A stretch of DNA of 45,125 bases, from the IMG/VR virus record IMGVR_UViG_2703718832_000003; one strand, written 5' to 3'. The notes under the pieces were generated by a model, which worked only from the letters and a program-made list of their open reading frames with translations, had not been told where the DNA came from and did no database searches. Positions 5,742 through 45,125 of this stretch are shown piece after piece; the stretch's first letter is position 1, and every line of letters starts with the position of its first letter. Made by a program: the position numbers and the translations under genes. This DNA comes from a virus (Duplodnaviria > Heunggongvirae > Uroviricota > Caudoviricetes).

Positions 5742-5881
5742 GTGAGATCCTCATTTTTGGGTGTTAGAATCCCCGGACCATTGATAGCGCCCATTGGGTT
5801 AACTTTGGTTTTAATGTTGTTTCCGGTGTAACTTTGGTCGGTGAGGCCGGACATGGCGGGCCCACTTCGGTGGGCTTTCGC

Positions 5882-21604: not shown

Positions 21605-21705
21605 ATGGACGTTTAGACGTCCAAATGGGTGCGAATCAAGTCGCATTCCAGCAAATGATAATCATTATCATTTGCGGGTCCTTTCCGGCGATCCGCCTTG
21701 TTACG

Positions 21706-21717
21706 GGGCGGCGTCCG
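21706..21717. other. cosN (cohesive-end nicking site), with cosB-like sequence extending to about 21890
   Basis: GTTACG|GGGCGGCGTCCG followed by CTATTTATGAAAATTTTC and TTTCCGTTCTTCTTC closely parallels the lambda cos region; lies about 190 bp upstream of Nu1. Confidence 0.6.
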
Positions 21718-21892
21718 CGCAGATTCTCGCTATTTATGAAAATTTTCTGGTTTATGCCATTTCCGTTCTTCTTCTTGTTTACTCATTGTTTTTGTTAAAA
21801 ACGTCCTCTCTCCAGAAAGGAAATGCTGAGCAAGGAAAACGGAAGTTTACCGTTGATTGTTTCCTTTCTCTGTTTTTTGCCAGGAGTAAGCC

Positions 21893-22438
21893 ATGGAGGT
21901 TAACAAAAAACGCTTATCCGAAATTTTCGGGGTAAGCGTCCGAACGATTCAGAACTGGCAGGAGCAAGGTATGCCGGTTGTCCGCGGTGGTGGCAAAGGT
22001 AATGAGGTTCTCTTTGAATCTGCTGCTGCAATCGAATGGTACAGTGCGCGCGATGCAGCTATAGAAAATGAAAAGTTGCGGAAGGAAGTTGAAGATCTCC
22101 GTATCGCTTCTGAGTCCGATCTTCAACCTGGCACGATTGAATATGAGCGACACCGACTTACGCGAGCTCAGGCTGACGCTCAGGAATTAAAAAATGCAAA
22201 AGAGTCCGCTGAAGTGGTGGAGACCGCATTCTGCACGTTCGTGCTGTCGCGGGTAGCCGGAGAAATCGCCAGCATTCTCGATGGAATACCTCTGTCGGTT
22301 CAGCGGCGCTTCCCGGAGCTGGAGAACCGACATATTGATTTCCTCAAGAAGGACATCATTAAGGCCATGAACAAGGCAGCTGCGCTGGATGAAATGATAC
22401 CGGGGTTGCTGAGTGAATATATCGAACAGTCAGGTTAA
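21893..22438 (+). CDS. nu1: Terminase small subunit (lambda Nu1-like)
   Basis: 181-aa protein MEVNKKRLSEIFGVSVRTIQNWQEQGMPV... nearly collinear with lambda Nu1. Confidence 0.9.
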   Translation: MEVNKKRLSEIFGVSVRTIQNWQEQGMPVVRGGGKGNEVLFESAAAIEWYSARDAAIENEKLRKEVEDLRIASESDLQPGTIEYERHRLTRAQADAQELKNAKESAEVVETAFCTFVLSRVAGEIASILDGIPLSVQRRFPELENRHIDFLKKDIIKAMNKAAALDEMIPGLLSEYIEQSG

Positions 22439-37186: not shown

Positions 37187-40100
37187 ATGGCTACTTCCAC
37201 TCCGATTAGAGGCCGCAAGGGCGGCAGTTCCAGTTCCCGTACCCCTACAGAACAGCCAGACGATCTCCAGTCCGTAGCGAAGGCCAAGATTCTTGTTGCG
37301 CTGGGAGAAGGGGAATTTGCGGGGCAGTTAACGGCTAAAGATATCTATCTTGACGGCACGCCACTGGAGAATGCAGACGGATCGCAAAACTTCAGCGGCG
37401 TGGCATGGGAGTTCCGCCCGGGGACTCAGGCTCAAAAGTATATTCAGGGCATCCCCGGTACCGAGAATGAAATCAGCGTAGGTACCGAAGTTTCAAGCGC
37501 TACGGCCTGGACGCATACCTTTACCAACACCCAGCTGTCAGCCATTCGTCTGCGCCTCAAATGGCCATCACTGTTTAAACAGGAGGACGACGGCGATCTG
37601 GTCGGCTATTCGATTAATTACGCTATCGATCTGCAGACAGATGGCGGTACCTGGCAGACCGTGCTTAATACCAGCGTCACCGGGAAAACCACGTCAGGCT
37701 ACGAACGCAGCCACCGTATCGACTTACCGCAGGCGGGAAGCACCTGGACGGTACGTCTTCGTAAGCTCACCGCAGATGCGAACAGTGCGAAAATTGGCGA
37801 CACGATGACGCTGCAGAGCTACACGGAGGTAATCGATGCCAAACTGCGCTATCCAAACACCGCGCTGCTGTACATTGAATTCGATTCAAGCCAGTTTAAC
37901 GGCTCCATCCCGCAAATTTCCTGTGAACCGCGCGGGCGCGTTATCCGCGTGCCGGATACTTACGATCCGGAAACCCGGACCTATAGCGGTACCTGGACGG
38001 GGGCGTTTAAGTGGGCATGGACGGACAATCCGGCGTGGATTTTTTACGATCTGGTGGTGAGCGACCGTTTTGGACTTGGCGACCGCCTGACGGCGGCAAA
38101 TATTGATAAATGGACGCTTTACCAGGTCGCACAATATTGCGATCAGCTGGTTCCTGATGGTAAAGGCGGTAGCGGCACCGAGCCTCGCTATACCTGTAAC
38201 GTGTACGTGCAGGAGAGGAATGACGCCTATACCGTGTTACGTGATTTTGCGGCGATATTCCGTGGCATGACGTACTGGGGCGGCAATCAAATCGTTGCAC
38301 TGGCAGATATGCCCCGCGATGTTGATTACAGCTACACCCGCGCTAACGTGGTTGACGGCCGCTTTACCTATTCTGGCAGCACCACTAAAAACCGCTATAC
38401 CACCGCGCTGGTTTCCTGGTCAGATCCGGGTAATGCCTACGCAGATGCGATGGAGCCGGTTTTTGAACAGGAGCTCGTCGCTCGCTTTGGCACAAACCAG
38501 CTCGAGATGACAGCCATTGGCTGTACCCGGCAGTCTGAGGCAAACCGTAAGGGGCGCTGGGGGATTCAGACCAATAACAAGGATCGCATCGTATCGTTTG
38601 ATGTTGGTCTGGACGGCAACATTCCACAGCCTGGTTATATTATCGCGGTTGCCGATGAGCTGTTATCCGGAAAGGTGATGGGAGGGCGTATCAGCGCGGT
38701 TAATGGTCGCGTTATCACGCTTGATCGTGATTCCGCTGCCGTTGCCGGAAGCCGTCTTATGGTTAACCTGCCGTCTGGCGCATCGCAGAGCAGGACGATT
38801 CAGAGCGTAAACGGCCGGGCTGTCACCGTGACCACGGCATACAGCGAAACACCGGCAGTCGAATCGGTATGGATTGTCGAATCCGACGAGCTTTATGCAC
38901 AGCAATATCGTGTTATCAGCGTCTCTGATAATAACGACGGCACGTTTTCTATTACTGGTGCTTTTCACGATCCGGATAAGTATGCCCGTATCGATACCGG
39001 CGCCATCGTCGACCAGCGGCCAATAAGTGTAATTCCGCCCGGTAATCAGTCCCCGCCAGCTAATATCGCGATCAGTTCGTTTTCTGTCGTTCAGCAGAAT
39101 ATCAGCGTTGAGACCATGCGCGTCAGCTGGGACCAGGCGAAAAATGCTATCGCGTATGAGGCACAGTGGCGTCGCAATGACGGGAACTGGGTGAATGTGC
39201 CGCGCAGCTCCACCACGTCATTCGATGTTCCGGGGATTTATGCAGGACGCTACCTGGTTCGCGTGCGTGCCATCAATGCCGCCGAAATTTCATCTGGGTG
39301 GGGCTATTCAGAAGAGAAAACGTTGACGGGTAAAGTGGGAAACCCACCGAAGCCGGTTGGCTTCATCGCTTCTGAAAACGTGGTATTCGGTATTGAGCTG
39401 AACTGGGGATTCCCGGCGAATACCGAAGACACGCTGAAGACGGAAATTCAGTACAGCCTGACCGGTACTGAAGACGATGCCATGCTGCTGGCCGATGTGC
39501 CTTACCCGCAGCGCAAATATCAGCAGATGGGCCTTAAGGCTGGGCAGATTTTCTGGTACCGCGCGCAGCTGGTGGACCGCAGCGGCAACGAATCAGGGTA
39601 CACAGAATGGGTGCGAGGACAGGCCAGCATCGATGTTTCCGATATCACAGATGTGATTCTGGAGGAAATTAAAGACTCCGATACGTTCAAAGACCTGATC
39701 GAGAACGCGGTGGACAGCAACGAAAAAATTGCTGGCATGGCTAACGATATCAAACAGGCCAACGACGAACTGGAGCAGCAAGCGAAAGATATCGCCAAAA
39801 ATGCCCAGGACGTCGGGAAGGTTCAGACCAGCGTTAATGAGCTTTCCAGCACGGTCGGGAATGTTTCGTCTTCACTCAGTCAGCTTGAGCAGACCGTTGC
39901 GACGGCTGATACCGCCCTGGGCCAGCGAATCGACAACATCAGCGTTTCTATGGACGGCATGACGGGCGGGGTGAAGAACTCTGCAATTGCGATTATTCAG
40001 AATGGGCTGGCGCAGGTGGTAAGCCGTCGCTCGCAGACCGCCACGAACGGCGGGAACAGCGCCAGTATAGACAGAGTGGATACTACAATTGCCGATGCCA

Positions 40101-40735
40101 GCCAGGCGGTCGCGCGCGCGCTGGTCACGCTGGATGCAGAAGCTGGTGGCAATATCTCTAACTCAACGGACCTGACAGAAACTCTTGCTGATTTCACACA
40201 GGCATCGGCGACAAAAATTAACACCCTGACTGTTAAATCTGGCGAAAACAGCGCCGCGATAAACGTCAACGCACAGGCTATCGCAGATGTAAACGGTAAC
40301 CTCAGTGCCATGTACAACATCAAGGTGGGCGTAACCAGTAACGGGCAGTATTACGCTGCCGGGATGGGGATTGGGGTTCAGAATACACCCTCCGGCATGC
40401 AGTCACAGGTAATATTCCTGGCCGACCGATTTGCTGTTACCACTGCTGCCGGAAACAGCGTGGCGTTACCATTTGTGATCCAGAATGGTCAGACGTTCAT
40501 CAGGGCCAGCTTCATTCAGGACGGTACCATTGAGAACGCCAAAATCGGTAACTATATCCAGTCGAATAACTATGTGGCTGGCTCTGCAGGCTGGAAACTT
40601 GATAAGGGGGGCACCTGGGAAAACTACGGCAGCGACGGTCAGGGAGCAAGAAAATCCACCAATGTCACTGACAGTATCAGGGATTCAAATGGCGTGCTCC
40701 GCGTGCAAATCGGCAAACTTACAGGGGTGTTTTGA
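37187..40735 (+). CDS. J: Host specificity protein J (central tail fiber / tip attachment protein)
   Basis: 1182-aa ORF in the canonical position, lambda J-like N-terminal two-thirds. Confidence 0.9.
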   Translation: MATSTPIRGRKGGSSSSRTPTEQPDDLQSVAKAKILVALGEGEFAGQLTAKDIYLDGTPLENADGSQNFSGVAWEFRPGTQAQKYIQGIPGTENEISVGTEVSSATAWTHTFTNTQLSAIRLRLKWPSLFKQEDDGDLVGYSINYAIDLQTDGGTWQTVLNTSVTGKTTSGYERSHRIDLPQAGSTWTVRLRKLTADANSAKIGDTMTLQSYTEVIDAKLRYPNTALLYIEFDSSQFNGSIPQISCEPRGRVIRVPDTYDPETRTYSGTWTGAFKWAWTDNPAWIFYDLVVSDRFGLGDRLTAANIDKWTLYQVAQYCDQLVPDGKGGSGTEPRYTCNVYVQERNDAYTVLRDFAAIFRGMTYWGGNQIVALADMPRDVDYSYTRANVVDGRFTYSGSTTKNRYTTALVSWSDPGNAYADAMEPVFEQELVARFGTNQLEMTAIGCTRQSEANRKGRWGIQTNNKDRIVSFDVGLDGNIPQPGYIIAVADELLSGKVMGGRISAVNGRVITLDRDSAAVAGSRLMVNLPSGASQSRTIQSVNGRAVTVTTAYSETPAVESVWIVESDELYAQQYRVISVSDNNDGTFSITGAFHDPDKYARIDTGAIVDQRPISVIPPGNQSPPANIAISSFSVVQQNISVETMRVSWDQAKNAIAYEAQWRRNDGNWVNVPRSSTTSFDVPGIYAGRYLVRVRAINAAEISSGWGYSEEKTLTGKVGNPPKPVGFIASENVVFGIELNWGFPANTEDTLKTEIQYSLTGTEDDAMLLADVPYPQRKYQQMGLKAGQIFWYRAQLVDRSGNESGYTEWVRGQASIDVSDITDVILEEIKDSDTFKDLIENAVDSNEKIAGMANDIKQANDELEQQAKDIAKNAQDVGKVQTSVNELSSTVGNVSSSLSQLEQTVATADTALGQRIDNISVSMDGMTGGVKNSAIAIIQNGLAQVVSRRSQTATNGGNSASIDRVDTTIADASQAVARALVTLDAEAGGNISNSTDLTETLADFTQASATKINTLTVKSGENSAAINVNAQAIADVNGNLSAMYNIKVGVTSNGQYYAAGMGIGVQNTPSGMQSQVIFLADRFAVTTAAGNSVALPFVIQNGQTFIRASFIQDGTIENAKIGNYIQSNNYVAGSAGWKLDKGGTWENYGSDGQGARKSTNVTDSIRDSNGVLRVQIGKLTGVF

Positions 40736-41037
40736 TGTCATGGGGTATACAAACATGGGATGCGTCGGGTAAACCCAACAACTACGGTATCAAGCCAGTT
40801 TCAGTTGTTGGGCGTATACAGCTGGCTGCCGGACAAAACTCCGGCAGTTGGTCTTTCGCGATGCCCTCAGGAATGAAGGTCGGCTTTGTGCTCTCACTTG
40901 ATGAAGGTGGAAACAGCGTAGGGAGGCGCATTGTCGCGTCAGGGAACACAATAACCGTAACCGCTGCCTCTTCTGTAGGCCTAGGTAATTACCCGGCCTC
41001 TAAGTGTGAGGTGATCGTTTTCATGGAGAAAGTATAG
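40732..41037 (+). CDS. Hypothetical protein downstream of J (contains WDASGK motif)
   Basis: 101-aa ORF, stop/start overlap with J and with the next gene; motif IQTWDASGKP. Confidence 0.4.
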   Translation: MMSWGIQTWDASGKPNNYGIKPVSVVGRIQLAAGQNSGSWSFAMPSGMKVGFVLSLDEGGNSVGRRIVASGNTITVTAASSVGLGNYPASKCEVIVFMEKV

Positions 41038-41711
41038 TGTCTGACTTTGGCGCAATGATATTAATGGAGAACGGCAATCCCTTTGTTACACCACAATCAA
41101 CGCCTTTCTGCCTCTACGGAAAATACTCCTTCAATTCCTCAGCTAATGGCAGCTCTCAGCAGGTGGCGCAATATCTTTCGGTTCCTGACGATTATCCGGC
41201 AATGGTCTTCATAAAAACGACTAATACTGCGCAGCCGACCCCGGTCATTTCATATCGGATTGGAGGAAATGTCTATATTAGTGGCGTAAATCCCTATAAC
41301 CAGGGCTTTACGCTGACAGCATATGTATTTGCAATTTTTCCGCAAACACTTCCCGCGTGGGGATTTGCTATCTGGGATGCCTCCGGGAAGCTTGTTCTGA
41401 CGAACGAATCAAGGGTGCTTTCTGATCTGCAAACAGTGGGCACGCCAGGTGCAAGCGGCGGGATTAATATTGACCAGACGCTGAGCGGGTCATGGGCTGT
41501 TGCGCCTGCTCAGTTGGGTCAGACCATCATTGTGAATAATTCAACCAAGCCTCCGACTATCTACACGATAAATGCTTATTCTTCATGCAGGTTTGACGGG
41601 GCCAATACGAGGATAAACGCAGGGGGGACCTCCACTGGGGCAGGTTCACCTGGAGGGGGAACGAATACTGGCATTTCATTAACCGCCATAAATACAGCGG
41701 CCTATGATTGA
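41037..41711 (+). CDS. Hypothetical protein (contains WDASGK motif)
   Basis: 224-aa ORF; motif FAIWDASGKLVLTNE echoes the upstream gene; Gly/Thr-rich C-terminus. Confidence 0.4.
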   Translation: MSDFGAMILMENGNPFVTPQSTPFCLYGKYSFNSSANGSSQQVAQYLSVPDDYPAMVFIKTTNTAQPTPVISYRIGGNVYISGVNPYNQGFTLTAYVFAIFPQTLPAWGFAIWDASGKLVLTNESRVLSDLQTVGTPGASGGINIDQTLSGSWAVAPAQLGQTIIVNNSTKPPTIYTINAYSSCRFDGANTRINAGGTSTGAGSPGGGTNTGISLTAINTAAYD

Positions 41712-41822
41712 TTGATCGTTTTTAGCGATCAATAACATAATATTGATCTATCCAATCAATTATACCCACCAGAATTGTATTGGTATCGTCTAAGATACTG
41801 AATTCCTCTGGATACTATCAAA

Positions 41823-42056
41823 ATGAGAAAACTGATTATCTGCATGGCAGGCGCTGTCATGCTTACAGGATGCGCTGGCGTAATTGAGAAACAGGAACCA
41901 GTTTGCAGCGGCACTGCAATCGTTGGCGGTCAGGAAACTACGGTTCAGATTTACGGTGTGCGTAAACAAAACAACCAGACGCAGTACCGGGCTGGATATC
42001 CTTTCAGCTGGCGCTGGGTAAGTGCGAATACATTTACCGAAACAACCTGCAAATAA
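41823..42056 (+). CDS. Small lipoprotein, Cor-like superinfection-exclusion candidate
   Basis: 77-aa ORF with signal peptide and lipobox (MRKLIICMAGAVMLTGCAG); sits between J and the side tail fiber, the position of cor in related phages; followed by a terminator. Confidence 0.45.
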   Translation: MRKLIICMAGAVMLTGCAGVIEKQEPVCSGTAIVGGQETTVQIYGVRKQNNQTQYRAGYPFSWRWVSANTFTETTCK

Positions 42057-42077
42057 CCCACTACGCTTAAACATAAA

Positions 42078-42100
42078 CCTCGCTCCGGCGGGGTTTTTTT
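42078..42100 (+). terminator. Intrinsic terminator after the Cor-like gene
   Basis: CCTCGC-TCCG-GCGGGG stem-loop (one G-U pair) followed by seven T. Confidence 0.6.
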
Positions 42101-42116
42101 ATTGCCTGGAGAAAAT

Positions 42117-43685
42117 ATGCTTTATAACACCGGCACCATCGCCATTAATGGAAATACCGCCACCGGGACGGGTACAAACTGGACGGAACCGGCCAGCCAG
42201 GTCCGCGCTGGCCAGACGATTATCGTGATGTCTAACCCGGTGCAGCTGTTTCATATTTCATCCGTGAACAGCGCCACGTCAATGACGGTTACGCCTGCCG
42301 CTTCCCCGGCGCTGAGCCGCCAGAAATACGCCATTCTGGTGTCAGACATTATCTCCGTGGACGGACTGGCCCAGGCAATGTCGCAGCTCATCAAAGAGTA
42401 TGACGAGAACATTGGCGCGTGGGAGACGTTCGCCACTACCTCAGCAAACCAGACCATCACCGTTACCATCAACGGAACCTCCGTTAATATTCCAAGTATT
42501 GGCGCGCTTGCCAGAAAGGGGTCCAACAGCGATATCACCGAGCTGAAAGGGCTCACTACTGCGCTGTCTATTGCACAGGGCGGGACTGGGGCAAAGACCG
42601 AAGCTGACGCTCGCGCAAACCTCGGTTTAGGATACGGCACCAAAGCGGGCACTGTAGCCCAGGGAAATGATGAAAGGCTGAACACCGTCAATGGTAAATC
42701 AGGAGGAAATGTTACCGGCAGTTTGATGGTAACTCAGGGTAGCAGCATTGGCGTATCTACTCAGGAAGGTGGTGATAAGACTGTAAAGCTATACAACATT
42801 ACAGGGGATGGGACTGTCGGAGGTTATGTAAACGCCGTGGGAGGTGCCTGGTATAACGGGAACTGGTCTCTTGGCGGCGTTCGGGGGAGTGGGACTAATT
42901 TAGACAGAGCGCAGTTAAATGTTAATAGCGGAACTGGTACCGCGGGTTCATTTTTATTTTACCACGATGAGAGATTCAAATCATCTTCGTGTGGAGCTGA
43001 TGGGGCTGGTTATGGTGGCTCATGGTTAGACATTAACACATGGCAAAGAAATATCTCTTTTTTCCGAGGTAACGTATCAGTTAATAATGATGCAGGGTTT
43101 ATTCCCTTTGCCCGTTGGCATAGTCAATGCAGTGGTGGATATTCTTCAACAGTAGGGCTTGGTTCTATAGCTACCGGGCCTAGTTCGTGGGCGGATGTAG
43201 CAATAATAACGCTCGGGGATGGTGGTTCTTCCGGGAAACGTTTATTTCAATTCACGACAGCAAACGGTGATATATACGCTAACGCTGGTGGAAATATTTC
43301 CGGTAACTATATTTTCCAGAAGCAGCCTAACTGTGACATTACGCTGAAGCACGATATTAAATATGATGATGGTTATCAGTCATACGAGAATATCAAAAAA
43401 TTTCTGCCAGCAACTTACGTCTACAATGATGACCCTCGTGAGAGAGTTCGCCGAGGCGTAATTGCTCAGGACGCGATGAAGATTGACAGTGAGTACGTCA
43501 AACTGGTACCTGCATCACCGGCGTTCGACAGTGAAGGCAACAGGATTGATGCTGATGATACGTTGGCGCTTGATACGAACGTCATTATGCTTGATACCGT
43601 GCTGGCCCTGAATTACGTCATCAAGAAGCTGGAGGCTACACAGAACGAGCTGGAGGAGATTAAGCAAAAAATAGCGGCATCATGA
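42117..43685 (+). CDS. Side tail fiber protein with invertible C-terminal part and S74-like intramolecular chaperone
   Basis: ATG at 42117 (track ORF begins at TTG 42102); N-terminus MLYNTGTIAINGNTATGTGTNWT...; C-terminus ...DAMKIDSEYVKLV...LALNYVIKKLEA...; a crossover site lies inside the gene. Confidence 0.75.
   Translation: MLYNTGTIAINGNTATGTGTNWTEPASQVRAGQTIIVMSNPVQLFHISSVNSATSMTVTPAASPALSRQKYAILVSDIISVDGLAQAMSQLIKEYDENIGAWETFATTSANQTITVTINGTSVNIPSIGALARKGSNSDITELKGLTTALSIAQGGTGAKTEADARANLGLGYGTKAGTVAQGNDERLNTVNGKSGGNVTGSLMVTQGSSIGVSTQEGGDKTVKLYNITGDGTVGGYVNAVGGAWYNGNWSLGGVRGSGTNLDRAQLNVNSGTGTAGSFLFYHDERFKSSSCGADGAGYGGSWLDINTWQRNISFFRGNVSVNNDAGFIPFARWHSQCSGGYSSTVGLGSIATGPSSWADVAIITLGDGGSSGKRLFQFTTANGDIYANAGGNISGNYIFQKQPNCDITLKHDIKYDDGYQSYENIKKFLPATYVYNDDPRERVRRGVIAQDAMKIDSEYVKLVPASPAFDSEGNRIDADDTLALDTNVIMLDTVLALNYVIKKLEATQNELEEIKQKIAAS
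42610..42635. promoter_or_regulatory. Left inversion crossover site (gix/hix-like), inside the tail fiber gene
   Basis: CTCGCGCAAACC-TC-GGTTTAGGATAC; the AAACC-NN-GGTTT core and GTATCC half-site match the Gin/Hin-family site pattern; core dinucleotide TC at 42622-42623. Confidence 0.5.
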
Positions 43686-44498
43686 ATCCTGAGCATTCAA
43701 CTGCAGCCCGTTCCGGAAAATTACGGGCTGCAAATTATTCAGCTTCCTTGTTCCAGTTTTTCAACCTTACTCGTCAAATTATCGACCCTAACCATTAGGG
43801 CCAGAATTGCCTCATGGTGCAAAGCTGCAGCAACCCCGTAAGTATCGACAGTTTTCACATCAGGAATAATAGTTCCGTCCTCCAGAGTAATATCATAGCC
43901 ACCTTTAACAGCTTCGGGAAATACTTGCTCAACGTCCTGTGCAATAAAGCCGTAACCAGTGGTTTCATTGTCTATACGCTCCCAAAAGCAGCCTTTAATG
44001 GCTTTCATCTTTGTGAGAGGATCGGATATGCGCGCGATGTCTTTTTTTATACGCGCATCTGAGAGTGATACCCATTGACCACCAGTGCCACGACCATCTG
44101 GGTAAAACATAAATGATGCTGCTGCCCCTCCAGATTCTGCCACCACATTTAACTGAACACGATCAAGTGGGGTAGAGCCGCTACGTATTGCACCAAACGC
44201 CCATGAACCGCTATACCACTTACCAATTATCTGATTAACATAATTCCCCTGAGATGGATCAGTGGTCGTATTATTCATCTCAATGGAGTTATCACCGCCA
44301 CTTCCCTTTCTGACCCCTAAACCACCACCGGCATTTGTATGCCAGTCAGTTGCTCCGCCGCCAACACCGTTGATTGTCACAGCAGATGAAATCGTTCCTC
44401 CTGATTTTCCGTTCACCGTACCCATGCGTGAATCATCCCCGGCCGCCACCGTTCCCGCCGCCGTTCCAACGTTCCTGGTGGCGCTGTTTCCCAAACCG
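42623..44498. mobile_element. Invertible tail fiber segment (G/C-segment-like host-range switch), about 1.9 kb
   Basis: Bounded by inverted gix-like sites with identical TC core when the right site is reverse-complemented; contains the 3' part of the plus-strand fiber gene and a startless inverted alternative; invertase gene immediately adjacent. Confidence 0.5.
43739..44494 (-). CDS. Alternative tail fiber C-terminal segment (no own start codon; expressed only after inversion)
   Basis: Open frame continues upstream to a stop at 44504-44506 with no ATG; first codons NVGLGN run through the right crossover site in the same frame relation as the left site; homologous to the plus-strand fiber (TVNGKSGG) and ends in a chaperone-like segment. 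Confidence 0.6.
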   Translation of the reverse strand: MGNSATRNVGTAAGTVAAGDDSRMGTVNGKSGGTISSAVTINGVGGGATDWHTNAGGGLGVRKGSGGDNSIEMNNTTTDPSQGNYVNQIIGKWYSGSWAFGAIRSGSTPLDRVQLNVVAESGGAAASFMFYPDGRGTGGQWVSLSDARIKKDIARISDPLTKMKAIKGCFWERIDNETTGYGFIAQDVEQVFPEAVKGGYDITLEDGTIIPDVKTVDTYGVAAALHHEAILALMVRVDNLTSKVEKLEQGS

Positions 44499-44511
44499 AC
44501 GTTTTATAGAT
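44486..44511. promoter_or_regulatory. Right inversion crossover site (gix/hix-like)
   Basis: Top strand GTTTCCCAAACC-GA-CGTTTTATAGAT; reverse complement ATCTATAAAACG-TC-GGTTTGGGAAAC matches the left site in inverted orientation. Confidence 0.5.
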
Positions 44512-44576
44512 TGCTCTCGAGCGGCCTGGCCGATAACTTCACCTGATTTTTTTGCAGAAATAACTGGGTGAAAAAT

Positions 44577-45125
44577 ATGCAAATTGGCTATGTCAGAGTG
44601 TCAACAAATGACCAAAATACAGATCTCCAGCGCCAAGCTCTCGAACGCGCAGGATGTGAACAGGTTTTTGAAGAAAAAATGAGCGGGACGGTAGCGAACC
44701 GGCCAGCGCTCAAAAAGCTTCTGCGGACTCTGAATGCGGGCGATACACTGGTGGTGTGGAAGCTGGACAGGATAGGCCGCAACGTTCTGCATGCGCTGTT
44801 GATGTTCCAGCAGTTACAGGAAAAGGGTATCAACTTCCGCAGTATTACCGATGGCGTGGATCTCAAAACAGCCAGCGGCCGCTATAACTTTCGTAACATC
44901 CTTTCCGCAGCACAATATGAATCTGATCTTAATAGCGAACGTACCTTAGCAGGGCTGGCCGTAGCCAGGGCAAAATGGCGAGTTGGTGGTCGCAGGCCTA
45001 AGTTCACGGATGAGCAATGGCGGGAAATGGGGGAGCGGATGGCAACCGGTGAATCACGACAAAGCGTATCAAAAACGTATGGAGTAGGGCTCTCAACTCT
45101 GTATAAAAAGTTTCCAGCTAGCTGA
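44577..45125 (+). CDS. Serine recombinase, DNA invertase of the Gin/Hin/Pin/Cin family
   Basis: ATG at 44577 in frame with track ORF 44568-45125; MQIGYVRVSTNDQNTDLQ... with catalytic Ser in the conserved VRVST motif; adjacent to the invertible fiber segment. Confidence 0.85.
   Translation: MQIGYVRVSTNDQNTDLQRQALERAGCEQVFEEKMSGTVANRPALKKLLRTLNAGDTLVVWKLDRIGRNVLHALLMFQQLQEKGINFRSITDGVDLKTASGRYNFRNILSAAQYESDLNSERTLAGLAVARAKWRVGGRRPKFTDEQWREMGERMATGESRQSVSKTYGVGLSTLYKKFPAS

Follow-up and report, generated by a model that had tools for sequence, protein, structure and literature searches.

The present analysis concerns a 45,125-nucleotide stretch of viral DNA (IMG/VR record IMGVR_UViG_2703718832_000003, Caudoviricetes), hereafter referred to as the window, and in particular a small gene lying on its plus strand at positions 41823-42056, upstream of the side tail fibre gene (stf). 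On the basis of its sequence, this gene is the phi80 allele of cor, which is more than a merely Cor-like gene. According to the reading favoured here, to which a probability of about 0.9 can be assigned as a whole, it is the cor gene of a lambdoid phage of the phi80/mEp237 kind, that is, a moron equipped with its own terminator and encoding an exported lipoprotein that would inactivate the ferrichrome transporter FhuA, most likely by a route resembling that of the Llp protein of phage T5. The gene is already known, and its coding sequence holds no novelty.

Identity of the cor Gene

The initial annotation had presented the gene product as a Cor-like superinfection exclusion candidate of the phi80/N15 type, to be checked by alignment to known Cor proteins, and had regarded a lack of similarity to Cor as evidence to the contrary. 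The similarity is clear, and the proposal can now be worded more firmly. The product, 77 amino acids (aa) long, is identical at 77/77 positions to the Cor proteins of phi80 (CBH95076), mEp043, mEp213, mEp237, HK140, and HK225, and shares 79% and 37% identity with those of HK022 and T1, respectively. It passes the curated NCBIfam model NF047972, an equivalog named phage exclusion lipoprotein Cor, at a score of 140.9 bits (cutoff, 31), residues 1-76 covering positions 1-76 of the 78 of the profile, as well as PHROG 1119 (Cor superinfection exclusion protein; E = 7.1e-37). Pfam contains no Cor family model and returned only sub-threshold matches for the 77-aa product; these, namely MiAMP1 and, over the signal peptide, DUF4223, were considered noise and left unused. 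The NCBIfam matches to the TraV and TssJ lipoproteins (residues 4-58 and 3-54) were discarded as well, being far under the respective cutoffs and involving mostly the N-terminal end with the signal peptide.

A tblastn search with Cor, performed on 50,697 phage records, disclosed matches in 242 of them, and a large protein database yielded 113 homologues (E <= 1e-3) from Escherichia, Enterobacter, Salmonella, Cronobacter, Klebsiella, Rahnella, and others, the majority of which bear the name cor or "phage exclusion lipoprotein Cor". In the light of these homologues and tblastn matches, the predicted gene is not a chance open reading frame (ORF).

Comparison of the nucleotide sequences over 411 bp (41700-42110) gave 100% identity to the corresponding regions of HK140, mEp237, mEp213, and mEp043, and 95.1% to that of phi80. 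A three-way alignment revealed that all the phi80 differences fall 5' of the ATG, while not a single base differs in coding sequence, spacer, or terminator; coding sequence and terminator are thus identical in the window, phi80, and HK140. Among 5,426 complete E. coli genomes, 44 carry the same 278 bp embedding cor and its terminator, each time on the chromosome, and RefSeq labels this identical chromosomal DNA "cor: phage exclusion lipoprotein Cor". The record of phi80, in turn, annotates the identical protein as a lipoprotein blocking FhuA, processed by signal peptidase II and expressed from a gene with its own promoter and terminator.

Lipoprotein Features of the Product

The cor coding sequence (41823-42056, plus strand) begins with ATG and, stop codon included, encodes the precursor MRKLIICMAGAVMLTGCAGVIEKQEPVCSGTAIVGGQETTVQIYGVRKQNNQTQYRAGYPFSWRWVSANTFTETTCK, whose opening stretch is MRKLIICMAGAVMLTGCAGV. 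As already noticed in the initial annotation, the 77-aa product carries a signal peptide and the lipobox LTGC, both of which can be read directly in the sequence: the basic N-terminus (R2, K3) is followed by a hydrophobic core and then by L14-T15-G16-C17. The signal peptide spans residues 1-16 (41823-41870, plus strand), the same segment being reported as sig_peptide in the phi80 record, and the mature lipoprotein would consist of the 61 residues from Cys17 to Lys77. It is known that in E. coli a residue other than Asp after the lipidated Cys directs a lipoprotein to the outer membrane (the +2 rule). Since the residue following Cys17 is Ala18, Cor is predicted to be a substrate of signal peptidase II that is lipidated on Cys17 and sorted to the outer membrane.

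The precursor harbors four cysteines (C7, C17, C28, and C76); the initial annotation had mentioned several apparently conserved ones. This holds true for three of the four: in a set of 28 diverse homologues, down to 55% identity, C17 and C28 are maintained in at least 90% of the sequences and C76 in 28/28, whereas C7, embedded in the signal peptide, shows no conservation. A Cys28-Cys76 disulfide is assumed for the mature protein because Llp possesses such a bond.

Terminator of the cor Unit and Start of the Fibre Gene

The strong terminator that had been reported after the gene was recovered both by a terminator scan and by RNA folding. This intrinsic terminator of the cor unit (42075-42100, plus strand) starts 18 bases past the cor stop codon and is made up of a 9-bp stem (5 G-C pairs) closed by a 4-nt loop at 42075-42096, and of a run of seven T overlapping it at 42094-42100; its fold has an energy of -14.9 kcal/mol, with z = -3.2 relative to shuffled sequences. 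It is identical to the terminators annotated in phi80, HK140, and mEp237. The last T of the run is position 42100, so that the interval 41823-42100, originally delimited for this element, frames the gene and its terminator exactly.

Only 17 nt (42101-42116) separate the terminator from the ATG of the fibre gene at 42117. This ATG, rather than the TTG at 42102 chosen by the ORF tool, is most likely the start of the side tail fibre gene because the homologous genes of phi80 and HK140 start at the equivalent ATG. The sequence GGAGAAAAT precedes the ATG at 42117, and with this start the cor terminator lies outside the fibre gene.

Proposed Mode of Action and Comparison of Structures

The cor gene would represent a self-contained moron among the late tail genes, inserted between J-gp22-gp23 and the side tail fibre gene. 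Its precursor would be exported, lipidated at Cys17, and cut by signal peptidase II; the mature protein would then adopt the shape of a small beta-barrel, locked by the Cys28-Cys76 disulfide, and would presumably be anchored in the inner leaflet of the outer membrane, on the periplasmic side. From there it would inactivate FhuA, the likely receptor of the phage's own J protein. As a consequence, lysogens should no longer adsorb FhuA-dependent phages (phi80, T1, T5, N15, HK022, and the mEp phages), and they should lose sensitivity to colicin M and import less ferrichrome. By analogy with Llp of T5, Cor would most likely bind the periplasmic face of FhuA and cause its extracellular loops to fold inwards allosterically, thus destroying the site to which phages bind.

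These expectations agree with what has been described for the family. According to Uc-Mass et al. (2004), as cited in later papers, lysogens are protected from FhuA-dependent phages by the Cor proteins of phi80, N15, HK022, and mEp167 through the functional inactivation of FhuA, which also reduces the uptake of ferrichrome and confers protection against colicin M. Llp is known to bind the periplasmic face of FhuA and to close the extracellular loops 7 and 8 allosterically, and the authors of its structure expect Cor to act in an Llp-like manner; the same authors report that AlphaFold2 had put Llp on the wrong side. A preprint of 2026, which describes the mechanism of Cor as not elucidated, reports alike predicted folds for Llp and for the Cor proteins of phi80, T1, HK022, and mEp167. 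The articles PMC10373560 and PMC13449921 do not contain Cor as a whole word. The primary papers on Cor include Vostrov et al. (1996), Uc-Mass et al. (2004), and Arguijo-Hernandez et al. (2018).

A structural model of Cor was built with AlphaFold2 from an alignment of 28 sequences. The mean predicted local distance difference test (pLDDT) score was 82.5; averaged over blocks of 10 residues, it lay at 92-94 between residues 31 and 70 and at 90 in the final block. In the model, the protein is arranged as a small five-stranded beta-barrel. Fold and cysteine topology of the model correspond to those of Llp, with 13% identity in the structural alignment, and FhuA-bound Llp is the best match of the Cor model, which supports a fold shared by the two proteins. 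By analogy, an Llp-like allosteric action is envisaged for Cor.

Promoter Region and Expression

The homologous counterpart of the cor promoter described in the phi80 record is located at 41759-41797 (plus strand). Its coordinates were carried over from the annotation of FN582354 (phi80) through a gap-free alignment, which places the -35 element ATTATA at 41759-41764, the extended -10 element TGGTATCGT at 41781-41789, and the equivalent of the start site at 41797. Compared with phi80, the -10 carries a single base change (TATCGT here, TATTGT there). This stretch is a candidate for the gene's own promoter.

The orientation of cor is that of the late tail operon. In lambda-type late antitermination, the late transcripts run through terminators, and for this reason they are expected to proceed through cor and its terminator. 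A review of the work of the Kameyama laboratory, in which exclusion mediated by Cor is discussed for the mEp phages, counts mEp213 as a FhuA-dependent coliphage; since the sequence upstream of cor is identical in the window and in mEp213, mEp237, mEp043, and HK140, expression of cor can be expected in the present phage too.

The intergenic region between the gp23-like gene and cor hosts a cluster of ATTGAT/ATCAAT half-sites (41706-41761, with no strand assigned). These 56 bp embed 5/27 of the hexamers of this type present in the window, arranged as two palindromes, and abut the -35 element annotated in phi80. According to our own estimate, the clustering of the hexamers is far above chance. 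The same 56 bp also represent the only place in the window where three GATC (Dam) sites fall within 60 bp; this was rejected as a statistical signal, as the three sites lie in 31 bp and, with 152 GATC in the window, about 0.8 such clusters are expected by our estimate. The ATTGAT motifs are maintained in phi80, mEp390, and Enterobacter phage LAU1, the stretch from the motifs to the -10 being variable, and HK022 shows a 4-nt deletion in one arm of the cluster. The RNA fold of the region 41700-41770 has an energy of -16.7 kcal/mol (z = -5.2). The cluster may be a regulatory element or operator of cor, or else an RNA hairpin ending the message of the preceding tail gene.

Should a DNA-binding protein of the host or of the phage, or the Dam methylation state, act on the cluster as an operator, the blockade of FhuA in lysogens would be conditional or heterogeneous rather than constitutive. 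This is an unlikely possibility; if true, a regulated cor would weigh the exclusion of phages against what it costs in ferrichrome import. Two specific regulators were considered. Control by Fur is an appealing idea, given that fhuA is itself regulated by Fur, but it was rejected: a search for a Fur box upstream of cor found none, the best match involving just 11-12 of 19 positions. The TTGAT/ATCAA half-sites upstream of cor look like those of FNR, but they are spaced N7 or N11, whereas the FNR consensus has N4.

Alternative Explanations

One alternative concerns the manner in which Cor inactivates FhuA. Cor might exclude FhuA-dependent phages through, or together with, OmpA, OmpC, OmpF, OmpW, and LamB as well as Slp, masking or reorganising FhuA without ever forming a periplasmic 1:1 complex of the Llp type. 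The passage of a review that summarises Arguijo-Hernandez et al. (2018) lists these same six proteins as interacting with Cor in exclusion, and the absence of an elucidated mechanism, as stated in the preprint mentioned above, is compatible with such a scheme. Several results of the present analysis likewise weigh against the Llp-like route. When the Cor model was compared with the PDB using Foldseek, only weak matches were obtained, consisting of Tudor, chromo, and SH3-like barrels, and Llp ranked 44th (E = 0.39) in the midst of these generic barrels. A phmmer search with Cor on all PDB sequences, including those of Llp (8a60 and 7qjf), gave no match at E <= 10, and hhalign aligned the profile of Cor with Llp (whose query sequence was checked and is 100% identical to T5 llp) only along the signal peptide (22 columns, probability 62%). 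Homology in sequence between the mature domain of Cor and Llp was therefore not detected with either program; the idea that Cor belongs to the sequence family of Llp was rejected, the profile-profile alignment being limited to the signal peptides, and the analogy with Llp is one of fold alone. The Llp-like route is still the favoured reading, and the scheme based on other outer-membrane proteins appears as the less likely one.

A different objection concerns expression. The gene might be a silent passenger, left unexpressed in the prophage on account of a weak promoter and hence conferring no exclusion, or it might be read only late, by read-through of the tail operon, in which case its product would spare the progeny virions from the receptors present on cell debris. 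The candidate promoter is indeed a further point against the favoured reading: it is a poor match to the consensus, differs from phi80 in one base of the -10, derives from a transferred annotation, and was missed by the consensus scan, which called instead weaker 9/12 matches at 41679-41708 and 41712-41741; moreover, the orientation shared with the late tail genes makes late read-through expected. Yet the 411-bp stretch, upstream region included, is the same in mEp213, mEp237, mEp043, and HK140, and mEp213 is one of the FhuA-dependent coliphages in a group for which Cor exclusion is discussed. In addition, the coding sequence is unchanged with respect to phi80 whereas the region upstream has changed, suggesting selection on the protein, and late expression can coexist with expression from the prophage. 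A silent or exclusively late cor is thus quite improbable. Finally, the plus-strand ORF might be a chance or mis-called one, the real feature being the antisense ORF of 94 aa (41790-42074) that overlaps cor. Against this stand the 113 homologues of the plus-strand product, its conserved cysteines and intact lipobox, its passing of the curated model NF047972, and the fact that all the annotated records call the plus-strand gene; family model, tblastn, homologues, and conserved residues together refute the antisense alternative, whose probability is negligible. An expressed, plus-strand cor gene coding for a lipoprotein that inactivates FhuA remains by far the preferred reading.

Gene Order, J, and the Putative Receptor

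The location of the gene between J and the side tail fibre gene, indicated in the initial annotation, corresponds to the position of cor in phi80 and its relatives as far as the gene order is concerned, but cor does not directly follow J, as two ORFs (40732-41037 and 41037-41711) intervene. They represent two small genes on the plus strand (40732-41711), a phi80 gp22-like one of 101 aa and a gp23-like one of 224 aa. The former matches PHROG 557 ("outer membrane protein", E = 1e-35) and the latter PHROG 425 ("membrane associated protein", E = 5e-78); neither of them was assigned to a Pfam or NCBIfam family. The order J, gp22, gp23, cor, stf is common to phi80, HK140, mEp390, mEp237, Enterobacter phage LAU1, and Erwinia phage 49, and hence spans phages of E. 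coli, Enterobacter, and Erwinia. The constant linkage of the two small genes to J and cor suggests that their products might act at the tail tip or take part in the interplay with the receptor.

The gene for the host-specificity protein J (37187-40735, plus strand), whose C-terminal part is the receptor-binding region, was recognised by its similarity to J of phi80, a FhuA-dependent phage. The last 510 aa of the two proteins are 70% identical, and over the last ~270 aa the identity rises to ~93% (our own count from the alignment). Given this likeness of the C-terminus, the present phage very probably uses FhuA as its receptor. Its own cor would then shut down its own receptor, as is usual for this system.

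The Window as a Whole

The window reads as a complete lambdoid phage genome in prophage order, starting on the integrase side and continuing with cos and the head and tail genes up to an invertase cut by its end. This order is indicated by the internal position of the lambda-type cos region (~21700-21900, near 21.7 kb and ahead of the small terminase gene) and by the end of the linear phi80 record, which maps to ~21717. The sequence GGGCGGCGTCCG at 21706-21717 resembles the cohesive end of lambda. The closest phages are mEp237 and HK225, no phage record covering at least 80% of either half of the window; judging from these comparisons, the window is a new mosaic of known modules.

Some further elements were observed along the window. 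A perfect palindrome of 25 bp, GCAAATGATAATCATTATCATTTGC (21651-21675), situated left of the cos region at a distance of about 30 bp, matches the 19-bp Fur box consensus at 17/19 positions, the best score in the window. The early region contains, at 5783-5880 (plus strand), a match to isrB, an Hfq-binding small RNA (RF01386; 38.2 bits against a gathering threshold of 35, E = 0.0019), which is the only Rfam hit of the window.

The region downstream of cor, at 42612-44510, looks like an invertible tail-fibre tip of the Gin/Pin/Hin type. A hix/gix-like site, CAAACCTCGGTTTAGG, is located within the fibre gene (~42612-42637), and an inverted partner, CCAAACCGACGTTTTA, at ~44485-44510; the reverse complement of the latter agrees with the left site at 16/20 positions, the central TC being shared. 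Between the two sites lie the current C-terminus of the fibre (up to 43685, plus strand) and an ORF of 251 aa for an alternative one (43739-44494, minus strand), which an inversion would join in frame (N-L/V-G-L-G). Both fibre tips carry the intramolecular chaperone domain Peptidase_S74. A gene for an invertase of the recombinase family follows (44568-45125) and is cut by the end of the window; in mEp237, HK225, and mEpX1, an invertase is annotated at the equivalent place. Such an invertible fibre tip is a known kind of host-range switch.

Significance

The discovery value of this gene is small: cor has been a textbook case of lysogenic conversion and superinfection exclusion ever since the work on phi80 and N15, and the NCBI annotation pipeline already names this exact sequence. 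The result is useful for the annotation of the window, in that a lysogen is predicted to be resistant to T1, T5, phi80, and related FhuA-dependent phages and to colicin M and to import less ferrichrome, and the phage is predicted to use FhuA. What the present analysis adds is the structural check of the Cor model against FhuA-bound Llp and the description of a conserved palindrome cluster in the control region.

Comparison with Known Systems

The closest known system is cor of phi80. The likeness embraces the whole protein, the DNA of coding sequence and terminator, the flanking genes (gp22 and gp23 upstream, stf downstream), and the C-terminus of J. In this comparison, only ~120 bp upstream of cor differ, including the one base of the annotated -10, while the remainder of the present phage is composed of a different mosaic, with an invertible fibre tip and an invertase gene 3' of cor, neither of which is shown by the phi80 record in that region.

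Llp of T5 (PDB 8a60, chain B, with FhuA; 7qjf) consists of 61 residues, with Cys1 and a disulfide joining Cys11 and Cys58; mature Cor parallels it in its 61 residues and in its cysteines at mature positions 1, 12, and 60. The two differ in that Llp is a product of early lytic infection and cor a gene of the prophage; furthermore, periplasmic binding and allostery have been established for Llp only and have been proposed for Cor by the same authors.

The Cor proteins of HK022, N15, mEp167, and T1 belong to the same family and share with that of the window the lipobox and two further cysteines. Even the location of the gene is similar: in lambdoid phages and in N15-like gene sets, cor is likewise placed after J-gp22-gp23, and in T1 it adjoins the same two small genes, but with an orientation opposite to that of the tail genes.
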